Below, in pieces: positions 31,540-62,278 of a stretch of DNA of 64,000 nt (within the stretch, counting starts at the first letter, position 1; each line of letters starts with the position of its first letter). The translations under genes and the position numbers were made by a program. This stretch comes from an uncultured Bacillales bacterium (GTDB lineage Bacteria; Bacillota_I; Bacilli_A; RF39; UBA660), in NCBI GenBank assembly GCA_948442255.1, contig CAOJRT010000005.1, forward strand, positions 533-64,532. Direction: 5' to 3'. Below the pieces are notes generated by a model. That model saw only the letters and a program-made list of their open reading frames with translations, searched no databases and was not told the DNA's origin.

Positions 31540-33015
31540 ATGGCATATAATCCGTTAGAAGAATTAAAATGTGGAAATTGTTCTTTTCTTGGTAGACTTA
31601 CTATATATGATACAAAAACGATCATCCAAAGTATTAGAGAATCTTTTGAAAAAGATGTCATTATTAATGGTTTTTTACCTCTTATTATGGATGAAATGCC
31701 TCATTTTTGTTTTAAAATCATCTATGATAATCCTTCTTTTACAAAAGAAACACTTTATCTACTTAATAAGTATGTAGAACTCAAATATATGGATACAGAA
31801 ATGTTTGAAAATTTCTTTTCTTCCCCTATTGCAGAAGAATATGTATATACGCATTTTGATAAAATGCTTACAAGCGATGAAAAACTAGATAGTTTATTTT
31901 CCTTCTTATGCATTGATTATAAAAAACATGGAAAATTTCTCTCTTTTTTACGTCTACACCCTAATCTACACATCCGTGCTCGTTTTATGATTTATTTAGC
32001 TAAAAACAAGCCTTCTCTCTTGCAAGTGATTTATGATAATTTCATGAAGTATTTAACAAGTTATACCCATCAAGAATTTGAACAACTTACCTTTCTTCCT
32101 ACTTTAATGGATAAAGAAGATATTTCTATCCTTGCCATAACTCTTGCGCAAAATGATACTACTTTACCACTATATTACAGATTAAAAGATTACATTTTCA
32201 AAACTTATCCAGAGAACGATTTAGCTAAAATCTTACTTGACCTTGATAATAAACACCAATTTAATAGGGAAACAAATAAGACTCTTTTGCTTGAAGATAT
32301 TCAGCGTTTATTTCAAACTTCATATAATGAGCAGATATATCTTTTTGAGCACTATACAGAATATTTAAGTAAAGAAATTCTAAGCTCATTTGCTAAGTTT
32401 TTATCTTATTTTGATGAAAATCAGAATAGAAAAAGTTATTCTAACTATTCTTATTTATCTCATATTTTTTATAATGGACTTGGAAAAAGGCTAAAGGAAT
32501 TACTTGATCGTTATCTGTCTTTAAGCAACAATACATCTACCGAATTTATACGTCATGGTTCTACTGCTGCTGCTTTTCGTATCGGCGACTATGTTTTTAA
32601 ACTAAGTCATATGAAATGGTCTTATGAGGATCTTATTTGCCCTAATCTTTATTTGTTCCACCAAAATTTAGAGGAAATACTCCTACGTAATCCTAAATCA
32701 CAGCGAGTAATTGTTGGAATCGAAGTCCAATATTATTTGCCAAGAGACGCTTTGAATGTACCTTCTTTCATTTTTAAACTCTGGGAAGATGCTTTACGTG
32801 CACTTGGTTGGAAGACAAGCGATTCCTTAATGCATGGAAGATGTGGCGATAATTGTCGTTTACTAAATTCTTATAAAGATGCTTATACCAATAACTTGGA
32901 AGCTTTACCAGATTGGTTTAAAGAATATCCTGTTGTCTCAGTAGATAGAGATCGTGTTTATAGATTAGCAAATTACAAACATAGGAAAGAAATTCCAGAG
33001 TATTTTATTGACTAA
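31540..33015 (+). CDS. Hypothetical protein: helical N-terminal region plus a possible atypical kinase-like C-terminal domain
   Basis: RBS AAGGAGG. The C-terminus reads GSTAAAFRIGDYVFKL ... IEVQYYL ... MHGRCGDNCRLL ... VSVDRDR, which loosely resembles the P-loop/Lys, hinge, catalytic-loop and DxD layout of APH/choline-kinase-type folds. This is a by-eye reading only. Confidence 0.5.
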   Translation: MAYNPLEELKCGNCSFLGRLTIYDTKTIIQSIRESFEKDVIINGFLPLIMDEMPHFCFKIIYDNPSFTKETLYLLNKYVELKYMDTEMFENFFSSPIAEEYVYTHFDKMLTSDEKLDSLFSFLCIDYKKHGKFLSFLRLHPNLHIRARFMIYLAKNKPSLLQVIYDNFMKYLTSYTHQEFEQLTFLPTLMDKEDISILAITLAQNDTTLPLYYRLKDYIFKTYPENDLAKILLDLDNKHQFNRETNKTLLLEDIQRLFQTSYNEQIYLFEHYTEYLSKEILSSFAKFLSYFDENQNRKSYSNYSYLSHIFYNGLGKRLKELLDRYLSLSNNTSTEFIRHGSTAAAFRIGDYVFKLSHMKWSYEDLICPNLYLFHQNLEEILLRNPKSQRVIVGIEVQYYLPRDALNVPSFIFKLWEDALRALGWKTSDSLMHGRCGDNCRLLNSYKDAYTNNLEALPDWFKEYPVVSVDRDRVYRLANYKHRKEIPEYFID

Positions 33016-34725: not shown

Positions 34726-36039
34726 TTATTTCATTTCATATTCATAATCTTTAGGAACAAGCGCTAATGTTTGTCCTATTTTATTTTTTAACTCTGCTTC
34801 AAAAAAAGTTACTTCTTCTTCCTGCTTTTTTAATATACTTTCTTCAAGTGGCTGTTGCTTCTTATCTTCTGCTAAGGAAATATATGTAGAACTTGCTTCC
34901 AATATAGCTTCTATATATTGTTCTATTTCTTCTAATTCACTTGAAATATCTAAAGCTTCTTCATAATATTTTAACTTTTTATAAAGAAGACCATACTGCA
35001 CCACAGGATCCATAGTAGAAATTTGTTTATAAGCACTGCTTAAAAATTGTAAAATTGTAGGAAGAGGTAACTGAATCAGTTTAGCATAAGTAACCCAATT
35101 AAGAATAACCTCATTAGTTGGTATAATAAGGAACTCCCTCTTTTCCATATCATAAATATCGCGCATCTTTTTATATATTATTTTTTCATCTCTTCTTTTT
35201 TTATTATCTGCTAATAAAGCTTCGTCTCTCTTTTGTCTTGCTCTGTTTTGTAGTTCTTTTTCTTGCTTTTCTCTTTCTTGCTTATCTTTTTCACTTTCTT
35301 TATACGTAGTACTCTCTTCTTTGATTAAAGATGTTTGTCCAAATTTTCTTTCTTTTCTTAATGTCTTATTAACTGAATCAAGTACAATTGCAGAAACTTT
35401 CAAGTTTTTTAAAGCTTCTAATACAAGAGCAATATCTTCAAAGTCGAAAGAGTCCGATTTATCAAAATAGTGTGCTTCTATCAATTGATGATATGATAAA
35501 ACGGCATTAAAAGAAGTGGCATTTATATTGTTACATCTCTCAATTTCACTTAATAAAAGTTTTTCCTTCTCACTTAAATCTTTTTCTTCTTTATGAGAAG
35601 CCTGATAAAAGGCATCAGTTGTAATAAATTGATATACTTCCTGTATACTTACGCCATGAAAAGGAAAAGAGAACAAATCCTGTTCTTGTAGAATACGATT
35701 AGGACACTCAGTCAACCCAGAAGCAAGATTTTTCTTAATCAAATAAAAAACAATTTCACTTATATCTTTATCCGAAAAATTAGAATTTTCTAAAACCTCT
35801 GATAAAATAGAAAATTCGGTATAAACCTCACGTATTTTATTCCAATCCTCTATAGGACAACTATATATTCTTTTTAAGGTATCCAAACAAGCAATAAAAT
35901 CCATTGCATCTTCTGTCATGCTAGCATTGTTTCTTGCGCTCAAATATAACCTAGTTTTATTTTCTAAATTAGTAAGCTTATTCAGAAACTCAATTAGTTT
36001 TTGAACAGATGTTGGAACACTTTTATTTTCTTTTTCCAT
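34726..36039 (-). CDS. Hypothetical protein with a central highly charged (KE-rich) segment
   Basis: RBS AAAGGGG. 437 aa; KESEKDKQEREKQEKELQNRARQKRDE is coiled-coil-like. No catalytic motif. Confidence 0.55.
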   Translation of the reverse strand: MEKENKSVPTSVQKLIEFLNKLTNLENKTRLYLSARNNASMTEDAMDFIACLDTLKRIYSCPIEDWNKIREVYTEFSILSEVLENSNFSDKDISEIVFYLIKKNLASGLTECPNRILQEQDLFSFPFHGVSIQEVYQFITTDAFYQASHKEEKDLSEKEKLLLSEIERCNNINATSFNAVLSYHQLIEAHYFDKSDSFDFEDIALVLEALKNLKVSAIVLDSVNKTLRKERKFGQTSLIKEESTTYKESEKDKQEREKQEKELQNRARQKRDEALLADNKKRRDEKIIYKKMRDIYDMEKREFLIIPTNEVILNWVTYAKLIQLPLPTILQFLSSAYKQISTMDPVVQYGLLYKKLKYYEEALDISSELEEIEQYIEAILEASSTYISLAEDKKQQPLEESILKKQEEEVTFFEAELKNKIGQTLALVPKDYEYEMK

Positions 36040-49775: not shown

Positions 49776-52700
49776 TTATTCTATAGAAAATATTTTTTTG
49801 AATTTTTTCTTATATAGAACTAAAAGAACAAACATTCCTATTAAAATAGAAAAGAATAAAAGAATTTTAGCTCCCGTATTTGGGTTTTCTGTTTTTCTCC
49901 ATGCGGCATAATATATTAAACCATCTGTATCTAAGGCAGTGCCAGAAACAAATTTATCTCCTTTTCCTTCTTTTTCAGAAAACCATCCTAAAAATTCAAA
50001 TAAACCTGTATCACTTGCAAAGTCTTTTTTTTCTTCTTTTTCTACTTCATCATTCGGAAAGAAATATATAATATCCTCTTCTTCTCCATCAATAAAAGTT
50101 ACTTTCATAACAGGAGTCCAAAACATTTCTTTAGTTTCTGTATTATAACGTAAACGATACTCACTATGATAAGGATTTACAAATAAAAGACATTTAGCAT
50201 TCATCTCTTTATAATTTGTCTCAAAATCAATAGCAAATACAGGTATTTTAATATCTTGTTCTATCTCTTCGTTAAAAATACCCGCTTCTTCCATTAAATA
50301 GAAATCTTTTCCAAGCTTGATATTATTTAATTGATTTAAGTAAATGGAATAATCCCCAACGGAAGTAACAATTGTCTCCCCATCTAAAGTAAAAGGTCCC
50401 ATTAAAGCAACATTCGTATCGGTACGTATCGTATCTCCTTTATAAGTAGCATATCCCCCAGTAAATAAAGTAATGTCCTTATTTAAAGCGGAAAAGATAA
50501 TTTCTGTATTTTCAACAAAAATTGCTTTTTGATCATCTACATCCTCTCCTGTAATTGAAAAAGCTTCTCCATTATTAGTATAAATATAAAGATTGGAATC
50601 TCTAATTTCTATGTCAAACTCTTCTTCATACCCTGCTTGTAAACGCCCACCAATATAATTCATATGGTCAAATATAAGCTTCTTATAAGCCCATACACCT
50701 GCTCGATCATCATCCGTTTCACTCGCTAATTGATCCTTTTCCCCAATTTTAATTTCGCTATTTTTAGCATCTATATTTTTATAAACCCGAATAAAATCCA
50801 AATAAGGAGAAGAACTATCTTTCGACAACTCCATTTTAGTTCCATCTAAAACAAGAACTCCTTCACAAGTAAAAGCAGGGGCTTCCCCATCATGCGCAAC
50901 TTCCAAATTAGAGTTTGTAATCGTTGCATTATTATGGAAAATAAAAGGTCCTCCAAAATAAGTTACATTATCAAGATTCGCTTCTTTAGTTACATATATT
51001 TCAGCATCCTTACTTGTTTTTAATGTACCATGCTCTCTTGTCTCCATTTCTACATCTTTCATAGTTAAAGTTCCTTTAATTTGAAAAAAAGAATTAGATT
51101 TTGTCGCACTTTCTGGAGCTCTTTTGAGCTTTGAATTAATAATTTCTGTATTTTGCGAACTTAAACTGGCTGTTCCTGCATCTTGAAATATTTCTAAATT
51201 AGAATCTACAATACGAACTTCACCACCACTATTATAGCTTCCAACAATCATGACGCCTCCCCTGTAGTTGACATTATTCCAATTCAGATTTCCAGAAATA
51301 CTTATTTCTGCTGCTCCGTTTGTTTTTATAGTTCCACGTTCTCTAGAAACGACTTCTACATTTGTAAAAATACAATCTTTTTGTGTCAAAATAAAGGCAT
51401 TATTTTTCGCTTCCGCATTTAATTTGTTTTTTATAATTTTAGAATCATTTGCTATCAAAGTTCCTGTTACAGGAGTTACAAAAGGACCAGCACTTACATA
51501 AAAGCAAGTCTGCCCTCCAGAGCAAAAAATTTCAATAGAAGAAGAATTTACAGTCGCATCTCCATAGACTAATAAGGGACCTCCCTCATAGGTAACATCT
51601 GTAAACTGCATACTTTTAATCTTCATATCTTCATAATTTTTATCAGGATTTAAGAAATTAAGAGTCGAATTTTCCGCTATAACTTCTGCACTAGGTGCCG
51701 TAATAGAAATATTACTATTAATAGCCTGAATAGAAGAATCTTTTATAGTAACATTAATACATCCTCCTCCATTAAGAAGTGTAAAAATAGTTTCTATTTC
51801 ACTATCTGTTATCGTAACAGTTTTAGAATAACCTAATAAAGCCGTTCCATTAGTAGATTTTGTCTTATCATGTTTTAAAACATGGCAATTATCTATAACG
51901 ACATTTCTAAATCCAGAAACAAGTTCACCAGCTATTGTAAGTGTGCTATCTTTAAACAAAATATCTGCCGAATAGTCAGCTGTTGAACTATAAGGTCCCA
52001 AAAGATTGAAAGAAGATCCACCATTAGAGAGCAGAACAAATTCACAGTTTTCTATAAGCGTTTGCTTCGTAGCTCCAGAGCGTATTTCAATACGGGCTAA
52101 ATTTGTTAAAGAGGAATTCTTCGCAACCAACCAATTCGTACTAATAGAAGGATCCGCTCCTAATTCTTCTTTTGTTATTGATATTTGACTATCCGTTATA
52201 GTAAGCTCACTTGTTGCAGAACTTACATTTGTCCCAAAAAATAGTTTGGAATCTGAGGTAATCGTTGAGTTTTGAATAGAACCTATACTATTAGCCATAT
52301 ACCGAATAGCACAATCCGAAGCTGTATAAAAATGAAGCGTAGAATCAACTATATCCACCAAACTAGAAACATACATACTTGTTATTTTTAAATCCGCGTT
52401 TTTATATTTAGCAGCACCTACCACAAAAGAAGCAGCACCTGCATGATTAATATCATTGACAGAAGAATCATATATTTCTAACGTTCCAGAAGTTATAATT
52501 AAATTACGCCAAGCAGAAGCATTATAACTCATATGTTTTAAAATAATATTTTCAAATCCTTCTGCTAAAGAAAAATCAATATCGATACTATTACCATCTT
52601 TTGAATCAAATATGTAAAGATTTCCGTTCGTTCCATAAAAAGCAGCGTTAATAGTTCCTAAGTAATTTGCTGGTACTCCTTCACTTTCCCAGTTGGCCCA

Positions 52701-52973
52701 GCCACCATACGTTAGCTTATGTCCGTTTAAATCAATATAGACTGACTCTCCCTTATTTAAGTTACTTGTCATTTGTTTATCAAAATAATAGTCTCCTTTT
52801 AATTCATAATAACCAGCTGTTAAAGTAGTTCCCACACTAGAAAGATCAGTCCAAGTAATACCAGAGGTATTCTTAAGGGTATCCACGTCAAAATCTTCTG
52901 CTTTTGCTTGATTTATAAAAACGAAAAAAGCAGCGAATAAAAGAATAAAAATAGGAAACACCTGTCGCCTCAT
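49776..52973 (-). CDS. Large cell-wall-anchored surface protein: signal peptide, beta-helix-like repeats, Listeria-Bacteroides (Flg_new) repeat, NPNTG sorting signal
   Basis: Signal peptide ..FINQAKA/EDF. Ser/Thr/Asn/Ile-rich repetitive body. VTFIDGEE..FEFLGWFSEKEG..DTDGLIYYAAW is the InlB-B/Flg_new repeat pattern. The C-terminus is NPNTG, a hydrophobic helix and KKKFKK. ATG at 52973. Confidence 0.8.
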   Translation of the reverse strand: MRRQVFPIFILLFAAFFVFINQAKAEDFDVDTLKNTSGITWTDLSSVGTTLTAGYYELKGDYYFDKQMTSNLNKGESVYIDLNGHKLTYGGWANWESEGVPANYLGTINAAFYGTNGNLYIFDSKDGNSIDIDFSLAEGFENIILKHMSYNASAWRNLIITSGTLEIYDSSVNDINHAGAASFVVGAAKYKNADLKITSMYVSSLVDIVDSTLHFYTASDCAIRYMANSIGSIQNSTITSDSKLFFGTNVSSATSELTITDSQISITKEELGADPSISTNWLVAKNSSLTNLARIEIRSGATKQTLIENCEFVLLSNGGSSFNLLGPYSSTADYSADILFKDSTLTIAGELVSGFRNVVIDNCHVLKHDKTKSTNGTALLGYSKTVTITDSEIETIFTLLNGGGCINVTIKDSSIQAINSNISITAPSAEVIAENSTLNFLNPDKNYEDMKIKSMQFTDVTYEGGPLLVYGDATVNSSSIEIFCSGGQTCFYVSAGPFVTPVTGTLIANDSKIIKNKLNAEAKNNAFILTQKDCIFTNVEVVSRERGTIKTNGAAEISISGNLNWNNVNYRGGVMIVGSYNSGGEVRIVDSNLEIFQDAGTASLSSQNTEIINSKLKRAPESATKSNSFFQIKGTLTMKDVEMETREHGTLKTSKDAEIYVTKEANLDNVTYFGGPFIFHNNATITNSNLEVAHDGEAPAFTCEGVLVLDGTKMELSKDSSSPYLDFIRVYKNIDAKNSEIKIGEKDQLASETDDDRAGVWAYKKLIFDHMNYIGGRLQAGYEEEFDIEIRDSNLYIYTNNGEAFSITGEDVDDQKAIFVENTEIIFSALNKDITLFTGGYATYKGDTIRTDTNVALMGPFTLDGETIVTSVGDYSIYLNQLNNIKLGKDFYLMEEAGIFNEEIEQDIKIPVFAIDFETNYKEMNAKCLLFVNPYHSEYRLRYNTETKEMFWTPVMKVTFIDGEEEDIIYFFPNDEVEKEEKKDFASDTGLFEFLGWFSEKEGKGDKFVSGTALDTDGLIYYAAWRKTENPNTGAKILLFFSILIGMFVLLVLYKKKFKKIFSIE
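50358..51602 (-). repeat. Four tandem ~100-108-aa protein-level repeats inside the surface protein
   Basis: The units begin at TDVTYEGGP (aa 461), NNVNYRGGV (aa 569), DNVTYFGGP (aa 671) and DHMNYIGGR (aa 772). Each is followed by a [ST]SN[LI]E[IV]-type strand. Confidence 0.65.
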
Positions 52974-53100
52974 TAAAATCACTATCCTTTTTTTATTATA
53001 ACATTATTTATAGTATTTTGACAAACAATCAAATTTATACACAAAATCCGTTTTGCATAAATTAAACTTGCTTAGCAAAAATAGAAAATTTCCTTTTACT

Positions 53101-53129: not shown

Positions 53130-53161
53130 GAGATGCGTACTGAATGAAAGGAAGTAATAAT

Positions 53162-54568
53162 ATGAAAAAGACAAAAATAATTTGTTCTATTGGTCCTTCT
53201 ACCCAAAACTGGGAGGCATTTCAAGGATTAATAAAAGCTGGTATGAATGTAGCAAGAATTAATTTTTCTCACGCTACTATGGAAGAAAGGGCTTTAGATG
53301 AAAGTTTAGTTTACAAAGCAAGAAAAGAACTAAAAGCCAATATCGCTATTTTATATGACACAAAAGGACCTGATTTAAGAACATGTAGTTTTAAAGAGGA
53401 AACAATTGAATTAATAAAAGGAAATAAAATTCGTATCTTAGAAGAAGACTTAGGAGACCAAGGTACACAATCTGCTATTTCATTTAATTATAGAAATGTA
53501 GTAAAAGACCTAACCCTAGGACAAGAAATTCTATTAGATGATGGTTTCTATAAATTGGTAGTCACTTCTATCGAAGCAGATGGGGTTACTTGTGAAATTA
53601 AAAACTCTGGAACAATAAAATCAAGAAGAGGAGTTTGTATTCCTGGAATAAAGTTAGATGTTCCTTATGTATCTGAAAAAGATAAAGAAGATATTAAATA
53701 TGCGTGTGAAAAAGAAGGGGATTATTTAGCCATTTCTTTTGTGAATAGTGCTGAAAATATAAGAGAAGTAAGAGCTCTTTGTAAAGAATTTGGTTGTCCT
53801 AACATGCCAATTATCTCTAAAGTAGAAACGCAATATGCGATGGATAATTTAAAGGAAATCGTTGCCGAATCAGATTATATCATGATTGCTCGTGGAGATT
53901 TAGGTATTGAAACAGGTATTGAAAATTTACCATTATATCAACAAATGATGATTGATGAATGCCATGCGCAAGGAAAGGGCGTAATTATGGCAACACAAAT
54001 GATGACTTCAATGAAGAAAAGCATTCGTCCTACAAATGCTGAGGTAACTGATGTTGCAAATGCAATATTACGTGGTTGTGATGCCATTATGACAAGCGAT
54101 GAAACAACTATAGGGGATTATCCTGTAGAAACCATTGAAGCTATGGCAAAAATTGCAAAGAGTGCTGAACAAATTACTCAATATAATCTTAACGATTACA
54201 AACTACTTGGTTCAGCAATTCATAATACAATTGCCAAATGTGCTGTTGATGCAACAAAGGAACTTCCTATTAAAGCTATTGTTGCTTCTACATTAACAGG
54301 AAAAACGGCACAAGATTTATCCTCTTTACGCCCAAACTCTTTAATCGTTGCTGCTGTCACATCAGAAAAAGTAGCACGTAGTTTAGCCCTAAAATGGGGA
54401 ATTTACCCTATTCTTGTTCCAAATTTAAATTCAACAGATGATATCGTAATAAACGGAGTCCAAGCAACTAAGGAACTAATGCAACTACAAAATGGCGACT
54501 TAGTAGCTGTCATTGGTGGTTTCCCAAGCGAAGCTCATACAAACTTCTTAAAAATTGATCAAATATAA
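53162..54568 (+). CDS. pyk: Pyruvate kinase
   Basis: MKKTKIICSIGPS, NVARINFSH, DTKGP, MIARGDLG and MATQML motifs. An ATG at 53162 follows AAAGGAAG (the ORF track starts at 53144). Confidence 0.95.
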   Translation: MKKTKIICSIGPSTQNWEAFQGLIKAGMNVARINFSHATMEERALDESLVYKARKELKANIAILYDTKGPDLRTCSFKEETIELIKGNKIRILEEDLGDQGTQSAISFNYRNVVKDLTLGQEILLDDGFYKLVVTSIEADGVTCEIKNSGTIKSRRGVCIPGIKLDVPYVSEKDKEDIKYACEKEGDYLAISFVNSAENIREVRALCKEFGCPNMPIISKVETQYAMDNLKEIVAESDYIMIARGDLGIETGIENLPLYQQMMIDECHAQGKGVIMATQMMTSMKKSIRPTNAEVTDVANAILRGCDAIMTSDETTIGDYPVETIEAMAKIAKSAEQITQYNLNDYKLLGSAIHNTIAKCAVDATKELPIKAIVASTLTGKTAQDLSSLRPNSLIVAAVTSEKVARSLALKWGIYPILVPNLNSTDDIVINGVQATKELMQLQNGDLVAVIGGFPSEAHTNFLKIDQI

Positions 54569-54572
54569 AAAA

Positions 54573-54595
54573 AATTCCAATCATGGAATTTTTTT
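54573..54595. terminator. Bidirectional terminator between pyk and the PBP gene
   Basis: AATTCCA-atca-TGGAATT flanked by A7 and T5; overlaps the PBP stop codon. Confidence 0.7.
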
Positions 54596-56699
54596 ATGGT
54601 TCTAAATTCACTTCCAAAACCATGCCTGTTGTGATAGGAGTACCAACTTCCGCATGAAATGAGACAACTTTCCCATAACCATTTGACTTATATTCAATAT
54701 GCATAAGTTTACAAAGAGTAGAAACCTCACTACTACTCCATCCTGTAATATCTGGTAAAACATAGTTTTTATCATTTGTTACTAAAAACACTTTATTTCC
54801 CGCCAAAACGACTTGTCCTTTAACAGGATATTGCTTTACTACGTATTTTCCGCCTCCTAAACGGACCACATCCAAATGCATTGTCTTTAATTTTTCTTCT
54901 ATTTCTAAAACATCATGACTTACATAATTTTCCATAATAACGATTTTAGAAGTATCAATTGTTTCTGTCAATTCGGTAATGTTCTTATATTTTGCTATTT
55001 CATCTACGACTTTAGTAACCATCTCAGCAACACTTCTAAAATTCCCCTGAAATTGCTTTACAGAGATATAAATAACATATTGTGGATCATCATAAGGAAA
55101 AAGACCAGCAAAACTTTTGACATAATCATAAGTTCCAGTCAAATATTGTCCATTGGGTCCTGCTATCTGTGCTGTTCCTGTCTTTCCTACTAACTTTACA
55201 GTATCTGACTGAAAAAATTTAGCATCTGTCTTGCCACTATACACAACATCATACATTAAAGAAAGCATCTTATCTGCATTCTCTTTCTTAATCTTAGCCC
55301 CCAACTCCGTTCTTCCTTGTTCAAAAGTAACTTCTCCTGTATTACGATTAACAATCTTCTCAACAATATATGGTTGTAGTTCTACTCCTCCATTCGCCAA
55401 CATTGTAAGCGCTTGTAAATTCTGAATTGGAGTAGTTGTAATACCTTGACCAAAAGAAGCTGTTGCTATCTCTGTTGCATAAGTAAAATCAATATCACCA
55501 GTCAACTCATTTGGGAGACTAATACCCGTTTTCGCTCCAAAGCCAATCTTTTTATAGAAATCATGTAATTTGTCTCGTCCCATAGTTAAAGCCAAATTTG
55601 TGGCGGCAGTATTAGATGAATAGGCAAATCCCGAATCATAAGTAATAACGCCCCATCCTACATTATTAAAGTCTTTTATATTAGCATCGTCAACTCGAAT
55701 CGTTCCTGATTGATAGGTAGCATTGCCGTCATACAATCCATTTTCCATAGCTGCTAGAAAAGAATAAATCTTCATCGTACTACCAGGTTCATAAGTATAA
55801 GAAGTAAGGGGATTTAAGTAACTTTCAATTTCAAGTGTATTAGGATTAAAATTAGGACTTGAACTTGTGGCAACTATGGCTCCTGTCTTCGCATCAACTA
55901 CTGAAAAAGTAAGCCATGACATATCATAAGCGTTAGTTAATTCTTTAATCCCATTTTCTAAGAATAACTGAATTTTACTATCTAAAGTAAGATAAATATC
56001 TTGTCCAGGATCAGCTTCTTCACGTATGGTTTGTGAATTTGGCATTGTATACCCATAAGGGTCTTTTTGAGCAATAACAGAACCATCCTTTCCTTCCAAA
56101 ATCGAATTGTAGTAGCCTTCGATTCCCATCTCTCCAACAATGTCTCCCTCATCGTTCGTTTTGGCATATCCAATAATATAGGAGGCAAAAGGTCCCATAG
56201 TATAATAACGTTTTGAAGTTTCAATAAAATCGATTCCTGGCAAATCCAAATTCTCAATCTGTTTTTTTATTGTTTCCGTAATCCCTCTTCCATTTGGACC
56301 TAATTCCACTTGATATAAATCTTTATTTAAAAGGCGAAGAATATATTCTTTATCCATTCCTAAAATCCCAGATAAGCTTTCGGCAGTATATTCTTTATTG
56401 ACCACATGTTTAGGATTATCATCCTTCGTTGTCCTTGAAGGAGATAAGTAAGCAATAACAGTATAAGAGTTTATGCTTTGGGCTAACACTTCCCCATCCG
56501 TCGATAATATTGCACCTCTACTCGCTTTAATAATCGTTTTATCTGTGTTTCTTTCTTGAACAAACTTAGTTAAGTTAATCCCATTTGTCTCTTCTTTTAA
56601 AGCCACACAAAAAAGCTGAAAGACTATTGCAAAAAAAGAAAGACCTAAAACAACAAAAATCAATTTATTAACTTTTATTGTATCATTCTTTCTTTTCAT
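54594..56699 (-). CDS. Division-type class B penicillin-binding protein (PBP2B/FtsI-like) with two PASTA domains
   Basis: TM anchor, SxxK (GSTMK), SSN, KTGTAQ and two C-terminal PASTA-like units. Follows ftsL. Confidence 0.9.
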   Translation of the reverse strand: MKRKNDTIKVNKLIFVVLGLSFFAIVFQLFCVALKEETNGINLTKFVQERNTDKTIIKASRGAILSTDGEVLAQSINSYTVIAYLSPSRTTKDDNPKHVVNKEYTAESLSGILGMDKEYILRLLNKDLYQVELGPNGRGITETIKKQIENLDLPGIDFIETSKRYYTMGPFASYIIGYAKTNDEGDIVGEMGIEGYYNSILEGKDGSVIAQKDPYGYTMPNSQTIREEADPGQDIYLTLDSKIQLFLENGIKELTNAYDMSWLTFSVVDAKTGAIVATSSSPNFNPNTLEIESYLNPLTSYTYEPGSTMKIYSFLAAMENGLYDGNATYQSGTIRVDDANIKDFNNVGWGVITYDSGFAYSSNTAATNLALTMGRDKLHDFYKKIGFGAKTGISLPNELTGDIDFTYATEIATASFGQGITTTPIQNLQALTMLANGGVELQPYIVEKIVNRNTGEVTFEQGRTELGAKIKKENADKMLSLMYDVVYSGKTDAKFFQSDTVKLVGKTGTAQIAGPNGQYLTGTYDYVKSFAGLFPYDDPQYVIYISVKQFQGNFRSVAEMVTKVVDEIAKYKNITELTETIDTSKIVIMENYVSHDVLEIEEKLKTMHLDVVRLGGGKYVVKQYPVKGQVVLAGNKVFLVTNDKNYVLPDITGWSSSEVSTLCKLMHIEYKSNGYGKVVSFHAEVGTPITTGMVLEVNLEP

Positions 56700-56723
56700 A
56701 TCGAATACTCCTTTTTGAAGTTA

Positions 56724-57029
56724 CTATTCATTAGTTACAACTTTTATATTATCATTTTTATAAGTCAACCCATTTTCTTGCGCTATTATTTGTATCTTAT
56801 CTAAAGAAGCAAGTTCACTTATTTCCATTTTCAAGCTATTGTTCATATCTTCTTGCTCTCTAATTTTATTTTCTACTTCTTGTAGAGCAATATTACTCTC
56901 TGATAGTATAGCTTTAGTATAAACGTTAACTACAGGAATTGCAAGCAATATAAAAACCAAAGTCAGCCAAATAAGACCTTCTCCTTTAAGTAATCCCTTT
57001 TTCTTTCCGTTTTTAATAGTAGCTTTCAT
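56724..57029 (-). CDS. ftsL: Cell division protein FtsL
   Basis: About 100 aa, with a single TM helix plus a coiled coil, between rsmH and the PBP. Confidence 0.8.
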   Translation of the reverse strand: MKATIKNGKKKGLLKGEGLIWLTLVFILLAIPVVNVYTKAILSESNIALQEVENKIREQEDMNNSLKMEISELASLDKIQIIAQENGLTYKNDNIKVVTNE

Positions 57030-57033
57030 ATTG

Positions 57034-57957
57034 TCAAATCCTTTCCATTATACGAAGTTTAGCGCTTCTACTTCTTGTATTCTCTTCCAACTCTTTCTCG
57101 GAGGGAAGAATTGGCTTTTTATTAATTATTTTGATACGAGGTTTATATTGCTCTGGAATTTGCGGAAGTCCTCGAACAAGTTCGTCTATTTCACTCTCTT
57201 TTTTAAACAGCTGTTTTACAATACGGTCTTCTAACGAATGAAATGAGATAACAGCCATTCTACCTTCTGGTTTTAACAAATCTATCGCATCTGGTAAAAC
57301 ACTTCCCAGTACTTTAAGTTCGCTATTTACTTCAATACGTATTGCCTGAAAAATCTGTCTTTCAGGATGAAATTTATTAAAGTACTTCGCTCCTACACTA
57401 GACTCTATTATCTTAACTAATTCTTTTGTCGTATTTATGGCTTTTTTGTTTCTTTCCATCACTATCTTTTTGGCAATCGAATAGGACATTCTTTCTTCAC
57501 CATAAAGATAAAAGATAGCGGTAAGTTCTTTTTCTCCATAAGTATTCACTATATAGCGAGCATCTAGCTTCTTTGTTTGATCCATACGCATATCTAAAGG
57601 AGCATCACTCATAAAAGAAAATCCCCTTACCATAGTATCTATCTGTGGACTAGAAAGCCCTAAGTCAAACAAAATACCATCTACTTGTGTAATCCCTAAT
57701 TCCGCTAGTTTTTCTTTCATCGCTACAAAGTTACTATGAATAAGCGTAAAATTAGGACTTATAGAAGATAATCTTTCTTTTGCATAGACAATTGCGTCCT
57801 GATCCTGATCAAATGCATACAAATGCCCAGTTGTTAGTTTTTTTAAAATCGCACTACTATGTCCCCCATAACCTAATGTAGCATCTATATAGATACCATT
57901 TTCTTTAATTTGAAGTCCATTAATGCTTTCTTCCAATAACACACTATAATGTTTCAT
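57034..57957 (-). CDS. rsmH: 16S rRNA (cytosine1402-N4)-methyltransferase RsmH (MraW)
   Basis: [28 protein letters not shown] and FHSLEDR motifs. An ATG at 57957 follows GGGGGT and overlaps the mraZ end by 14 nt. Confidence 0.93.
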
Positions 57958-58390
57958 CAAAGATACCCCCACTAAATAGATTTTCAGCAATATCTTCTAT
58001 CTTATCTTCATTCTCTAAGAAGAAGTTATCCCAACCATCCTTTGACCATATTTCTATGCGGTCGTTTGCGCCGATAACGACACATTCTTTTTCGATATCA
58101 GCGTAACTAACCAATGGGGAGGTAATGTTAATTCGACCTTGTCGATCAAATTCACATTCAGTGGCACCAGAAAAGAAGGATCTTACAAATGTACGGACAT
58201 CTTTTTTGGTAAAAGGTAGAGTTTTTATTTTGGATACTATACGATTCCATTCCGTCTCAGAATAAACATATAGACATTTTTCTAAGCCTCGGGTCACAAT
58301 AAAATGTTCTCCGAGTTCATTACGGAATTTGGCAGGAATGATAAGTCGTCCTTTTTCGTCAATATTATGACGATATTCGCCCATGAACAT
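57944..58390 (-). CDS. mraZ: Transcriptional regulator MraZ
   Basis: [23 protein letters not shown] and a second DxxGR repeat (FDRQGRI). Confidence 0.95.
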
Positions 58391-58537: not shown

Positions 58538-59743
58538 TTATAGTGTTCCCGCTTTCGCTCCTTTAGTTCCTTTAGCACCACCATCAAAAGTACTTAATAC
58601 ATTAGATTCAAAACTAGTCACTTTTTTCTTGGCTTTTTTGTAATCTTTTACTGCCCCTGAAATTAGTTCATCTAACATTTTTTTATAACTTTTTCCCATA
58701 GGCGTATAAAAGAAGAATGCCAGACATCCAGGAATTGTATTGGGTTCATTTACATAAACCTTTTTTGTCTCCTTATCTACTAGAAAATCAAATCGTGTAA
58801 CGCCACTTAAATTTAGGGCTCGAAATGCTGCTTTGGCAAAAGCATAAATATCTTCTTCAATCTTTTTATCTAACAAAGCAGGAATTTTAAAACCAGCAGT
58901 AGAAAGCGAATCGCCACTTTTAGCCCCACTTTTTGCACCTTTAGATCCTTCAGCCATATATTTATCTTCAAACGTTAAAAGTTCATTTGATGTAATCATT
59001 TCGCCAATTAGAGAACATTCCATATTCTCTGCATTTCCTAAAACAGCACAATCAACTTCTAACAAATTCTTTACCATTTTCTCAATAATGATTTTTTCAT
59101 CATAAGAAATTGCCTCTTCAATAGCAGGAATCACTTCTTTTTCATTATGAGCCACTTGGATGCCTACACTACTACCAAGCCGCGCAGGCTTTACAATAAC
59201 AGGGTATCCTAATGTTTTTATGTCTTTTAAGATTCTTTTTTCTTCTTCCTTATATTCAAAATCATAAAACCAAAGATAATCAACAACAGGAATAGAAGAA
59301 GCTTGCATCACTTGCTTTTGCACAACTTTGTCTTGCCCAATAGACGCACCTAACATAGAAGAACCGACATAAGGAATACCAAGCGTTTCAAAATATCCAG
59401 ATAAAGATCCATCCTCGACTCCTTTTCCATGAACAATTGGAAAAGCCATATCTATCGTTTCTACGACTTTATTAAATAAACCTTTTTTCTTTTGCAAAAC
59501 AAAATTTTCTCCTACTTTCGTCAAAGTAACTTCTACCGCTTTAGTAGCAACACCACTTAAATCTTTATAAGTTTCCATATGACGCAAAGCTTCCCCTGTA
59601 TACATATTTTTATCTTTGCCTATATAAATAGGAACCACTTCGTATTTCGCTTTATCCATATAATTCATTGCTTGAACAGCTGTAATAATACTTACCTCAT
59701 GCTCTACAGATTCTCCCCCAAATAGTACACCAACTTTTATCAT
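58538..59743 (-). CDS. ddl: D-alanine--D-alanine ligase
   Basis: KVGVLFGGESVEHEVS, ATP-grasp GYPVIVKPARLGSSVG and NEPNTIPG motifs. An ATG at 59743 follows GAGGAG. Has a Gly/Ala/Lys-rich insertion and tail. Confidence 0.92.
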   Translation of the reverse strand: MIKVGVLFGGESVEHEVSIITAVQAMNYMDKAKYEVVPIYIGKDKNMYTGEALRHMETYKDLSGVATKAVEVTLTKVGENFVLQKKKGLFNKVVETIDMAFPIVHGKGVEDGSLSGYFETLGIPYVGSSMLGASIGQDKVVQKQVMQASSIPVVDYLWFYDFEYKEEEKRILKDIKTLGYPVIVKPARLGSSVGIQVAHNEKEVIPAIEEAISYDEKIIIEKMVKNLLEVDCAVLGNAENMECSLIGEMITSNELLTFEDKYMAEGSKGAKSGAKSGDSLSTAGFKIPALLDKKIEEDIYAFAKAAFRALNLSGVTRFDFLVDKETKKVYVNEPNTIPGCLAFFFYTPMGKSYKKMLDELISGAVKDYKKAKKKVTSFESNVLSTFDGGAKGTKGAKAGTL

Positions 59744-59757
59744 ATCAATCACTCCTC

Positions 59758-61365
59758 TTATTTTTCATTAAATGTATCAGGCAAATCATTCTCAAGTAAA
59801 CAATAAGTTTCTCCTTCTTTTAATTTTAACAATAAAGGAAATGCATCCAATACATTATTCAATATATATATATGTTCTTTTTTATATTTTTTTTCCATTA
59901 AACCTTCATAAATAGGTCTCGTTTTTTCTTCACCAATCAAAATAACCTCATCAGCTACATCTGCTATTTCACGCCCAAATTCACGATTTACTTCTTCTTC
60001 TTTTTCTCCGACCTCAATCATCCCAGGAGTAACAACGATGTGTTTGCCAGGCATCATTTGTAATACTTCGAGCGCCATCTTCGCTCCACTCGGATTCGAA
60101 TTATATGCATCATCAATAATATGGACGTCATAATATTCTAATATGGTAAGACGATGGGCAACTGGTTCGGCCCTTTTTACAGCTCGTTGTAAATCAGGAA
60201 TAGAAACACCTAAACTTTTCCCTAAAGCAATACTAGCTAAAATATTATAGATATTATTTCGTCCTAGTAATCTTGTTTCAAAAGCATATTCCTTTTTTAT
60301 TTTTGGAAAATAAACTTTAAAGGATGTTCCCTCGTTTGTAAGTTTTATATCTTTCGCATATAAATCGACTTTCTTATTCTCAATACCAATCCAAATAATT
60401 TGACAATCATTTTGAATAGTATAATTCCTTTGTTTTTCGTCATCTCCATTTAAAATCCCAATACCGTCACTAGGTAAGTTCTCAATCAGTTCAAATTTAG
60501 TCTTTTGAATCATCTCTTCACTACCAAAGGTTTCTAAATGTGCTACTCCTATTTTCGTTAAAATACCATATTTAGGATGTACTAAATCACATAATTCTTT
60601 AATTTCTCCTTTTTTACAGGCTCCCATCTCAGCAATAAAATAATCATTATACTTATCTAAATAATCATTAATAGAAATCATAAGTCCAAAAGGGGTATTA
60701 TAATTCTCTGGCGTTTTAAATACATTGAAAGAAGAATCTAAAACATCATATAATATATTTTTGGTACTCGTCTTCCCATAACTTCCTGTAATTCCAATCA
60801 CTTCCATTTGAGGCATGGTAGCAAGTCTTTTTAAGGTTTTCCTTTTATATAAATAAGCTACTAATTTTTCTATTGGTCTATTTAAGAAATTACAAAACAA
60901 TGCTATGAAATAAGTAAGGTTATATAAAACGCCAAATCCAAGATAATAAAAACTCATATATTGTTCTTCAAAAGTGAAGAAAAGTAAAAGAAGAAAAACA
61001 CCATAGAGAAAAAAACTAGAAAGAATAAGGCGTAGAATTCGCGCTGTATATTTTAAAGGCAATTTCCTCTGTTCTTTATATCGATCAAATAAGAAAACGC
61101 ATCCTGTAAAGAACGTAATAAATATAAATAAATAAGGGCTTATTGCATTTAATGTCTCACTAAAATAAGTAAAGAAAAAGATAAAATACAATAAAGACAC
61201 CTGTAAAAAGTTATCTTTAAAATTTCTTAAAATCCACTTAATATAGCGATACCCTCTATTATATCTGTTTTGTTGTAACATTTGTAGAGCTTTCAATTGA
61301 TAAAGAAAAGCTACTATCAAAAAGAAAAGTATACTTAAAACAAATAGTATTTTCACACTTAACAC
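59758..61365 (-). CDS. murF: MurF-type Mur ligase (UDP-MurNAc-tripeptide--D-Ala-D-Ala ligase) with the N-terminal domain replaced by a ~165-aa polytopic membrane domain
   Basis: P-loop GITGSYGKTSTKN at about aa 190, DDAYNSNP, and TPGMIEVGE near the C-terminus. It lies directly upstream of ddl. About 5 hydrophobic helices are in frame upstream of the P-loop. GGGAGG RBS, with the start at GTG 61365 or GTG 61356. Confidence 0.8.
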   Translation of the reverse strand: MLSVKILFVLSILFFLIVAFLYQLKALQMLQQNRYNRGYRYIKWILRNFKDNFLQVSLLYFIFFFTYFSETLNAISPYLFIFITFFTGCVFLFDRYKEQRKLPLKYTARILRLILSSFFLYGVFLLLLFFTFEEQYMSFYYLGFGVLYNLTYFIALFCNFLNRPIEKLVAYLYKRKTLKRLATMPQMEVIGITGSYGKTSTKNILYDVLDSSFNVFKTPENYNTPFGLMISINDYLDKYNDYFIAEMGACKKGEIKELCDLVHPKYGILTKIGVAHLETFGSEEMIQKTKFELIENLPSDGIGILNGDDEKQRNYTIQNDCQIIWIGIENKKVDLYAKDIKLTNEGTSFKVYFPKIKKEYAFETRLLGRNNIYNILASIALGKSLGVSIPDLQRAVKRAEPVAHRLTILEYYDVHIIDDAYNSNPSGAKMALEVLQMMPGKHIVVTPGMIEVGEKEEEVNREFGREIADVADEVILIGEEKTRPIYEGLMEKKYKKEHIYILNNVLDAFPLLLKLKEGETYCLLENDLPDTFNEK

Positions 61366-61369
61366 CTCC

Positions 61370-62098
61370 CTACTTTATAAAAGATTTTAAAACACGTATC
61401 GTTTGTTGTAATCTTTCTAAATAAGCATAGTGCGTACAATTTTCATAAACCACAACCCCACTATCTGGAATTAATTTTTCAAGGGCATAAGCGTCACTAA
61501 TAGCTACTGCTTCATCTTTTGTGCCCCAAATAAGTAAGGTAGGAACTCTTATCTTTTTCGCATGCTCCGTCAAATCTGTGTTCACATGTTTTACCAAAAT
61601 CTCCCGCATAATGGGATTGGCGTTTTTATAATCCGTCGACCCAATTTTATTTTTCATGATTTGAGCAATCCATTTTAGGCCTGGAATTTTTTTTAGCATC
61701 TTGTAGACTCTTACTTTTAATGGCTGTTTTTTATATTTTACTCGATAAGGACTAGCAAGTAATACCACACGCTTAACTTCATATAAAGAGGCATAAAGAA
61801 TAGCAAGCTTCCCACCAAAAGAATGCCCCACTATATTTGGTTTTTCTATTTTTAGAGATGAAAGTAAGGCGTGAAGCATAGAAACATAGTCTATTAGCTC
61901 CCAAGCTTCTTTTGGTTTCTCTGACTCGCCAAAACCAGGTAAATCGAGGATAATAACGCGATTCGTATCCCTAAAAGGATTGGCAATCGGTTCCATCATC
62001 TCAATATTTTGTCCCCATCCATGGAGATAAAGGATTGTTTCTTTATCTAGTTGTTGATTATCTACATAATTCACATGTATACCCTTATAATAAAACAT
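61370..62098 (-). CDS. Alpha/beta-fold hydrolase
   Basis: HGWG oxyanion region, nucleophile elbow GHSFGG and a C-terminal His. The start is uncertain (62098 with GGGTGA, or 62137). Confidence 0.75.
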   Translation of the reverse strand: MFYYKGIHVNYVDNQQLDKETILYLHGWGQNIEMMEPIANPFRDTNRVIILDLPGFGESEKPKEAWELIDYVSMLHALLSSLKIEKPNIVGHSFGGKLAILYASLYEVKRVVLLASPYRVKYKKQPLKVRVYKMLKKIPGLKWIAQIMKNKIGSTDYKNANPIMREILVKHVNTDLTEHAKKIRVPTLLIWGTKDEAVAISDAYALEKLIPDSGVVVYENCTHYAYLERLQQTIRVLKSFIK

Positions 62099-62257
62099 GT
62101 ACATCACCCAATACATCATATGCTTATAAAAAGCCATTCATAGCATATATTTTACCACTCTTTTTAAAGAAAGACTTCTCTTTTAAGCATTCTTGACAAT
62201 AAGTTTGTCAATTACGGCCCAAAACAATTATAAAATAAGAATAAAGACCGAGACAAA

Positions 62258-62278
62258 TAAAAAAAGAGCTTATGCTCT
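62258..62278 (-). terminator. Rho-independent terminator of efp (overlaps the stop codon)
   Basis: The minus strand reads AGAGC-ataa-GCTCT followed by T7. Confidence 0.65.

Follow-up and report, generated by a model that had tools for sequence, protein, structure and literature searches.

The locus considered here raises the question of how a bacterium adds the last residues of the peptidoglycan stem peptide when its MurF lacks the domain that normally holds the carrier end of the substrate. In textbook accounts the ligases MurC to MurF are soluble cytoplasmic enzymes, and MurF, an antibiotic target, catalyses the last cytoplasmic step of precursor synthesis; its domain 1 provides the grip on the diphosphate-linked carrier end of the substrate. 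In a stretch of 64,000 nucleotides from an uncultured gut bacterium (Bacillales) of the RF39 lineage (assembly GCA_948442255.1, contig CAOJRT010000005.1, positions 533 to 64,532; the whole stretch is referred to as the window), a MurF-like ligase has a domain of five predicted transmembrane (TM) helices in place of domain 1. We refer to the gene as TM-murF. The reading that we favour, at a probability of about 0.5, is that TM-MurF is this organism's MurF, an integral membrane enzyme that still uses the uridine diphosphate (UDP)-linked N-acetylmuramic acid (MurNAc) tripeptide, with conserved motifs at the membrane surface replacing domain 1. The gene and the parts of its product are as follows.

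59758 to 61356, minus strand: coding sequence of TM-MurF, 532 amino acids (aa) from the GTG at 61356; the longest open reading frame (ORF) reaches the GTG at 61365 (535 aa); the database protein P0001 starts at the same codon
61365 to 61370, minus strand: Shine-Dalgarno sequence GGGAGG, 8 nt upstream of GTG 61356, overlapping the stop codon of the upstream hydrolase gene (61370-61372) and the first GTG
60883 to 61356, minus strand: N-terminal membrane domain, residues 1-158, with five predicted TM helices, N-terminus outside and C-terminus inside (hydropathy, Lys and Arg counts, AlphaFold2)
61234 to 61281, minus strand: motif 1, after TM1, M26-x-Q28-Q29-N30-x-Y32 ... R37 ... W41, 87-100% conserved in 86 representatives
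61030 to 61059, minus strand: motif 2, before and at the start of TM4, P100-L101-x-x-T104-x-R106-x-x-R109, with R106 and R109 100% and T104 99% conserved
60868 to 60876, minus strand: motif 3, end of TM5, P161-x-E163, 100% conserved
60820 to 60879, minus strand: predicted basic linker helix, residues 160-179, from TM5 to the ligase core (AlphaFold2 predicted local distance difference test, pLDDT, 93-95; A174 and L178 conserved)
60223 to 60792, minus strand: Mur ligase central, ATP-binding domain (Pfam PF08245, 4.9e-43), with the P-loop GITGSYGKT at 60769-60795; aligned to the structures 3zl8 and 1gg4
59806 to 60156, minus strand: Mur ligase C-terminal domain (Pfam PF02875, 3e-10), with DDAYNSNP and TPGMIEVGE

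The gene lies on the minus strand, a correction to an earlier note on this DNA that was made from the letters alone. Translation probably starts at GTG 61356, since the GGGAGG sequence overlaps GTG 61365 but sits 8 nt upstream of GTG 61356; GTG 61365 was rejected as a start, the codon falling within the Shine-Dalgarno sequence. The ribosome-binding site pointed out in the earlier note is thus present, but it probably serves a start codon 9 nt downstream of the one used there. All residue numbers refer to the 532-aa version, in which the P-loop occupies residues 188-196, about 30 residues past the last membrane helix. The N-terminal extension had been judged unlikely to be a product of chance, and this judgement holds: the probability of 182 stop-free codons is about 7e-8 at the composition of the window (30% G+C), and the extension is kept in frame in 329 of 369 full-length homologues (phmmer, E ≤ 1e-3). 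One homologue below this threshold (P0355) still bears the motifs. The only identical database copy, P0001 (ENA, on a 3.4-kb contig), differs by a one-residue deletion, NVFKTP to NVKTP (window 60700-60760, minus strand).

Kyte-Doolittle hydropathy and the sequence place hydrophobic stretches at about residues 3-21, 53-65, 73-90, 107-128 and 136-158. A full-length AlphaFold2 model, built from a 19-sequence alignment (mean pLDDT 88.4, predicted template modelling score, pTM, 0.81), has helices at residues 2-29, 31-44, 46-51, 54-63, 67-94, 105-128, 131-146 and 148-158, followed by the linker helix 160-179, which leads into the first strand of the ligase; the membrane helices have a pLDDT of around 85-94. 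In 86 representatives of the family with pairwise identities under 70%, about 5 Lys and Arg residues fall in each of loop 1, loop 3 and the linker, and about 0.5 in each of the N-terminal tail, loop 2 and loop 4. By the positive-inside rule, these counts predict a cytoplasmic ligase and an N-terminus on the outer side. Hydropathy, the charge distribution and the structural model together make an integral membrane protein with a cytoplasmic catalytic part a well-supported prediction. The high pTM and the confident linker further indicate that, in the model, the junction between membrane domain and ligase is fixed and not a floppy tether. Pfam searches with 15 members (E ≤ 1) returned only scattered single matches for the membrane domain and no family, and a Foldseek search with a model of this domain alone (pLDDT 90) found no fold relative in the PDB, the best match having an E value of 3.6.

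The rest of the protein is recognisably a MurF. Pfam detects just Mur_ligase_M and Mur_ligase_C, both confined to the final ~345 residues, and the NCBIfam murF model scores 237 bits, compared with 86 for the best MurE model, 79 for MurC, 69 for MurD and 25 for MurT. The best sequence matches in the PDB are all MurF proteins (Thermotoga maritima, Escherichia coli, Acinetobacter baumannii, Pseudomonas aeruginosa and Streptococcus pneumoniae). The segments containing the P-loop, AEMGA, AHLE, KTKFE, GRNNIYN and DDAYNSNP align with 3zl8 and 1gg4, DDAYNSNP pairing with DDSYNANV of E. coli MurF. With the AlphaFold2 model as query, Foldseek ranks MurF on top (4qf5, E 5e-28 over 374 columns, then 3zl8 and 4cvm); the top ten are all MurF, and MurE, MurC and MurT rank lower. 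By sequence and model, the soluble part is therefore a MurF-type catalytic core consisting of domains 2 and 3, which would use ATP to add D-Ala-D-Ala to a MurNAc-tripeptide precursor, MurNAc-L-Ala-D-Glu-diamino acid. The same comparisons show that domain 1 is truly absent: the murF profile (TIGR01143) aligns at positions 73-375 of 418, and the PDB alignments begin at residue 83 of T. maritima MurF or residue 100 of E. coli MurF, that is, past domain 1. Because of this missing domain, the whole protein scores 236.9 bits, under the curated NCBIfam cut-off of 288.6. The central proposal of the earlier note, a MurF with DDAYNSNP and TPGMIEVGE in its last ~345 residues and a five-helix membrane domain replacing domain 1, is thus upheld, with the five hydrophobic segments recovered by hydropathy and as helices of the model. 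Its suggestion of membrane attachment is borne out as a prediction, and the AlphaFold modelling that it had proposed as a check yields five confident N-terminal membrane helices.

The membrane domain appears to be more than an anchor. Its mean identity to the query is 30%, versus 52% for the ligase, and its helices are conserved in hydrophobicity alone, whereas the three motifs listed above are 87-100% conserved. The predicted topology puts each of them at the cytoplasmic surface of the membrane, at the attachment point of the ligase. A simple anchor needs no invariant Gln, Asn, Tyr, Trp, Thr, Arg and Glu residues, which points to a predicted binding site. We infer that the motifs do the work of the lost domain 1 and bind the substrate at its carrier end.

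This architecture is not peculiar to the source genome; in a large clade it is the norm. A database search with the full protein gave about 8000 relatives, and the best 120 measure 531-540 aa and cover 95-100% of the query; those nearest to it form a Coprovivens-like group with 67-70% identity over the full length. When the N-terminal domain alone was searched against 1.84 billion representative proteins, 136 clusters were recovered. Every full-length carrier is 514-541 aa long, the remaining members being fragments at contig ends, so that this domain was found only fused to the ligase. The taxonomic survey that the earlier note had recommended, run on GTDB (one genome per species) with a 6-sequence alignment, found the fusion in at least 515 species, and the clade includes Erysipelotrichaceae. 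The best 80 GTDB matches all come from metagenome assemblies, labelled as uncultured Bacilli, Candidatus Coprovivens, Candidatus Fimihabitans, 'Tenericutes', 'Mollicutes' or Acholeplasma sp. CAG:878. A search seeded with an Erysipelotrichaceae member revealed the same architecture in proteins named MurF by NCBI from Anaerorhabdus sp., Solobacterium sp. and an Erysipelotrichia bacterium, in all of which the motifs of the N-terminal domain were verified; cluster look-ups for further named carriers yielded Solobacterium alone. The databases annotate the fusion proteins as plain MurF.

We propose the following scheme for TM-MurF acting on the nucleotide-linked substrate. The five TM helices, with the N-terminus outside, would keep ligase domains 2 and 3 in a rigid position close to the membrane, on its cytoplasmic side, and the grip on the carrier end would pass to a site made of Q28, Q29, N30, Y32, R37, W41, T104, R106, R109 and E163, residue types that would fit the recognition of a nucleotide diphosphate. 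Soluble MurE would supply UDP-MurNAc-tripeptide, which is the expected substrate since the MurE genes in related genomes match MurE models nearly full length. The co-transcribed Ddl would supply D-Ala-D-Ala, and the product, UDP-MurNAc-pentapeptide, would be released at the membrane beside MraY. Orthologues usually retain function. Moreover, David and colleagues are reported to have described, in 2004, pools of UDP-MurNAc-pentapeptide in Clostridium innocuum (Erysipelotrichales). A paper citing David et al. 2004 has the precursor of C. innocuum ending in Ser.

The genetic context of TM-murF is described by three further features.

58538 to 59752, minus strand: ddl, D-Ala-D-Ala ligase of 404 aa (Pfam), 5 nt downstream of TM-murF
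61370 to 62098, minus strand: alpha/beta hydrolase of 242 aa from the ATG at 62098 (Pfam, NCBIfam), 13 nt upstream of TM-murF; its longest ORF begins at 62137
62227 to 62256, minus strand: promoter-like site TTGTCT-18-TATAAT (consensus scan only; the number of such sites is not above chance)

A terminator-like hairpin after efp (62265-62278) just precedes the promoter-like site, which is a possible start of the operon. The coordinates confirm the 5-nt distance between the murF stop codon and ddl given in the earlier note. Neighbourhoods were compared in 80 loci, those of the best-matching among the at least 515 GTDB species. About 70 of these loci show the order hydrolase, TM-murF, ddl, the hydrolase lies immediately upstream of TM-murF in about 72, and the same three-gene order is found in the two most distant members inspected, next to unrelated neighbours. 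We place the start of the hydrolase at ATG 62098, and not at ATG 62137 (255 aa), because nearly all its homologues have 242 aa. Its residues Ser93, Asp195 and His223 are at least 95% conserved in 77 aligned copies; the nearest model is an EstV-family lipase (133 bits, below the cut-off) and the nearest PDB entry is 6i8w. By sequence, this protein is lipase- or esterase-like and may work together with TM-MurF; a search for distant homologues gave close relatives only. Ddl has the omega-loop Tyr265, which is conserved in 73 of 74 homologues and argues for a D-Ala-D-Ala rather than a D-Ala-D-Lac ligase. A role of the three-gene unit in D-Ala-D-Lac synthesis or vancomycin resistance was rejected for this reason. 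Right past Tyr265, Ddl has a variable Gly/Lys/Ser-rich insert of about 15-20 residues, and its C-terminal tail is rich in Gly, Lys and Ala. Two loci, L056 (9205-16534) and L058 (9202-16522), carry the whole three-gene unit in tandem duplicate, with copies 49-63% identical. The duplicated units retain nearly all motifs, one L058 copy failing the exact motif-1 pattern; this suggests module-like co-evolution of the three genes, whose specificity may have diverged.

Several points weigh against a nucleotide-linked substrate. To our knowledge, domain 1 is found in the members of the Mur family that use UDP-linked substrates, and the members without it, MurT, FolC and PgsB/CapB, act on non-UDP substrates. 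In substrate-bound MurE and MurF the pyrophosphate of the substrate lies at the boundary of domains 1 and 2 (PMC6113224); by analogy, this boundary is in TM-MurF the predicted membrane surface, exactly where a lipid-linked precursor would present its pyrophosphate. One can thus imagine that MraY loads phospho-MurNAc-tripeptide on undecaprenyl phosphate and that, on the inner side of the membrane, the ligase then adds D-Ala-D-Ala to lipid I- or lipid II-tripeptide; its membrane domain would bind the polyprenyl chain, and R106, R109 and T104 the pyrophosphate. The part exchanged for membrane helices is indeed the uridine-binding domain, the topology places the conserved Arg, Thr and Glu at the membrane-water interface, and the conserved neighbour is a lipase- or esterase-like hydrolase. 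The comparison with MurT made in the earlier note is sound as an analogy: MurT acts on lipid II, in which the pyrophosphate marks the exit point of the substrate from the membrane, it also lacks domain 1, and the authors of its structure argue that domain 1 would clash with the membrane (PMC6113224). TM-MurF is nevertheless no MurT (25.4 bits against a cut-off of 800 for the models NF045635 and NF052464), and MurT acts on lipid II without a membrane domain of its own. A lipid-stage reaction would also require MraY to take the tripeptide nucleotide as its normal substrate, and we know of no pathway in which it does so. Furthermore, conserved Gln, Asn, Tyr, Trp and Glu would be less expected in a site for a lipid than in one for a nucleotide, and UDP-MurNAc-pentapeptide has reportedly been found in C. 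innocuum, a species of the Erysipelotrichales. That the final addition to the stem peptide has moved from the soluble nucleotide to the lipid stage in Erysipelotrichales and their uncultured relatives, possibly with the hydrolase as a partner, is an attractive hypothesis that we hold to be less probable than the nucleotide-linked reading.

It is rather unlikely that TM-MurF is an accessory paralogue working beside a canonical soluble MurF, for example in repairing lipid-linked precursors that lack D-Ala-D-Ala or in adding another dipeptide. The two diverged copies of the whole unit in L056 and L058 indicate that sub-functionalisation occurs in this family, and the full-length score is under the murF cut-off. 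However, the gene holds the ddl-linked position typical of murF, its Ddl retains the D-Ala-D-Ala-type Tyr, and no canonical murF was detected in the window or in a combined ~1.2 Mb of flanks from the 80 carrier genomes, where the only other Mur ligases are MurE paralogues. Many carriers are also labelled Tenericutes or Mollicutes, lineages described as genome-reduced (PMC10868615), in which redundant copies would be less likely. Least probable by far is an artefact of annotation, with two genes read as one or with translation starting at an internal Met before the P-loop to give a soluble two-domain ligase. In-frame ATG codons do exist at residues 181 and 184, but no Shine-Dalgarno sequence precedes them and the internal Met is not conserved: the homologues P0171, P0185 and P0196 have Leu, with no Met nearby. 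No stop codon separates the two parts in any of the 329 aligned homologues, the motifs of the N-terminal domain are strongly constrained and this domain occurs only in fusion with the ligase. An internal start or a split gene is thus effectively refuted.

TM-MurF differs from each of the known systems that it resembles. With canonical MurF (EC 6.3.2.10; 1GG4, 3ZL8, 4QF5, 4CVK) it shares the ATP-binding and C-terminal domains, the segments of the ATP and substrate sites and the linkage to ddl. Canonical MurF, however, has a soluble UDP-binding domain 1 of ~80-100 residues. In TM-MurF, five membrane helices with invariant motifs of their own stand in its place; the protein is predicted to be membrane-integral and scores under the NCBIfam cut-off. 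PgsB/CapB, the poly-gamma-glutamate synthetase, is another amide ligase of the Mur family without domain 1 and has an N-terminal hydrophobic membrane anchor; it polymerises glutamate. This anchor is single, in contrast to the five-helix domain with conserved motifs found here, and no PgsB/CapB model is among the NCBIfam matches of TM-MurF. Foldseek also matched MurT (6gs2_D), which belongs to the MurT/GatD lipid II isoglutaminyl synthase. MurT is likewise a Mur-family ligase without domain 1, and it modifies a lipid-linked precursor at the face of the membrane (PMC6113224). It is nonetheless soluble, contains a zinc-ribbon insert, pairs with GatD and amidates D-Glu, whereas TM-MurF carries its own membrane domain; no GatD gene was found nearby in the window or in the 80 loci, the neighbours being the alpha/beta hydrolase and ddl. 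In Helicobacter pylori, the Csd5/Csd7/CcmA-MurF complex recruits soluble MurF to the membrane through protein-protein contacts (PMC9507126). MurF is in that case similarly brought near the lipid-linked steps, but it keeps domain 1, while the attachment of TM-MurF is covalent.

A membrane form of MurF is apparently undescribed. Literature searches found no published description of a membrane-embedded MurF, two recent comparative studies of peptidoglycan genes in exactly these lineages (PMC10868615, PMC12786226) do not mention one, and the supplements of both studies contain no table of murF presence. It seems that a large clade, with the cultivable genera Anaerorhabdus and Solobacterium among its members, relies on a polytopic membrane MurF without the domain that recognises the UDP carrier. 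Either the loops of a membrane protein would provide a new solution to UDP binding, with direct handover of the product to MraY, or D-Ala-D-Ala would be added on the lipid carrier; either would be new biochemistry, and the latter would change the sequence of steps in a pathway considered universal. The cultivable carriers, Solobacterium and Anaerorhabdus, make experiments feasible. A practical consequence concerns pathway reconstruction based on profile cut-offs, which can score murF as missing because TM-MurF falls under the NCBIfam threshold. One of the comparative studies reports 'missing steps' of peptidoglycan synthesis in RF39- and RFN20-type genomes (PMC10868615), to which an under-scored murF may contribute.

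Some of the 80 loci deviate from the common arrangement. In one sub-lineage (L072, 12424-16967; L049, 10731-14953; L057, 5957-7369), TM-murF occurs without the hydrolase and ddl and lies near MurE paralogues, and in L072 a GatA-like amidase gene is found between two murE genes. The Mur ligases near TM-murF in these three loci were considered as canonical MurF and rejected, being MurE paralogues that match MurE models almost end to end, domain 1 included. Six loci (L016, L026, L027, L045, L058 and L076) come from records whose titles say Muribaculaceae or Ignavibacteriales, yet they have this Bacilli-type operon, and the bin or taxon labels are probably wrong.

Elsewhere in the window, no further Mur ligase was detected, and none is present at the usual position in the division and cell wall (dcw) cluster. 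Three large ORFs lack a Pfam family at E ≤ 1e-5: 49776-52982 (minus strand, 1068 aa), 34726-36039 (minus strand, 437 aa) and 31540-33015 (plus strand, 491 aa). The dcw cluster is short, consisting of mraZ, rsmH, ftsL and pbp2B (54594-58390, minus strand) without murE, murF, mraY, murD, ftsW and murG, and is followed by a convergent pyruvate kinase gene (53144-54568, plus strand). In L001 and L050 a convergent minus-strand gene likewise stands directly after pbp2B.

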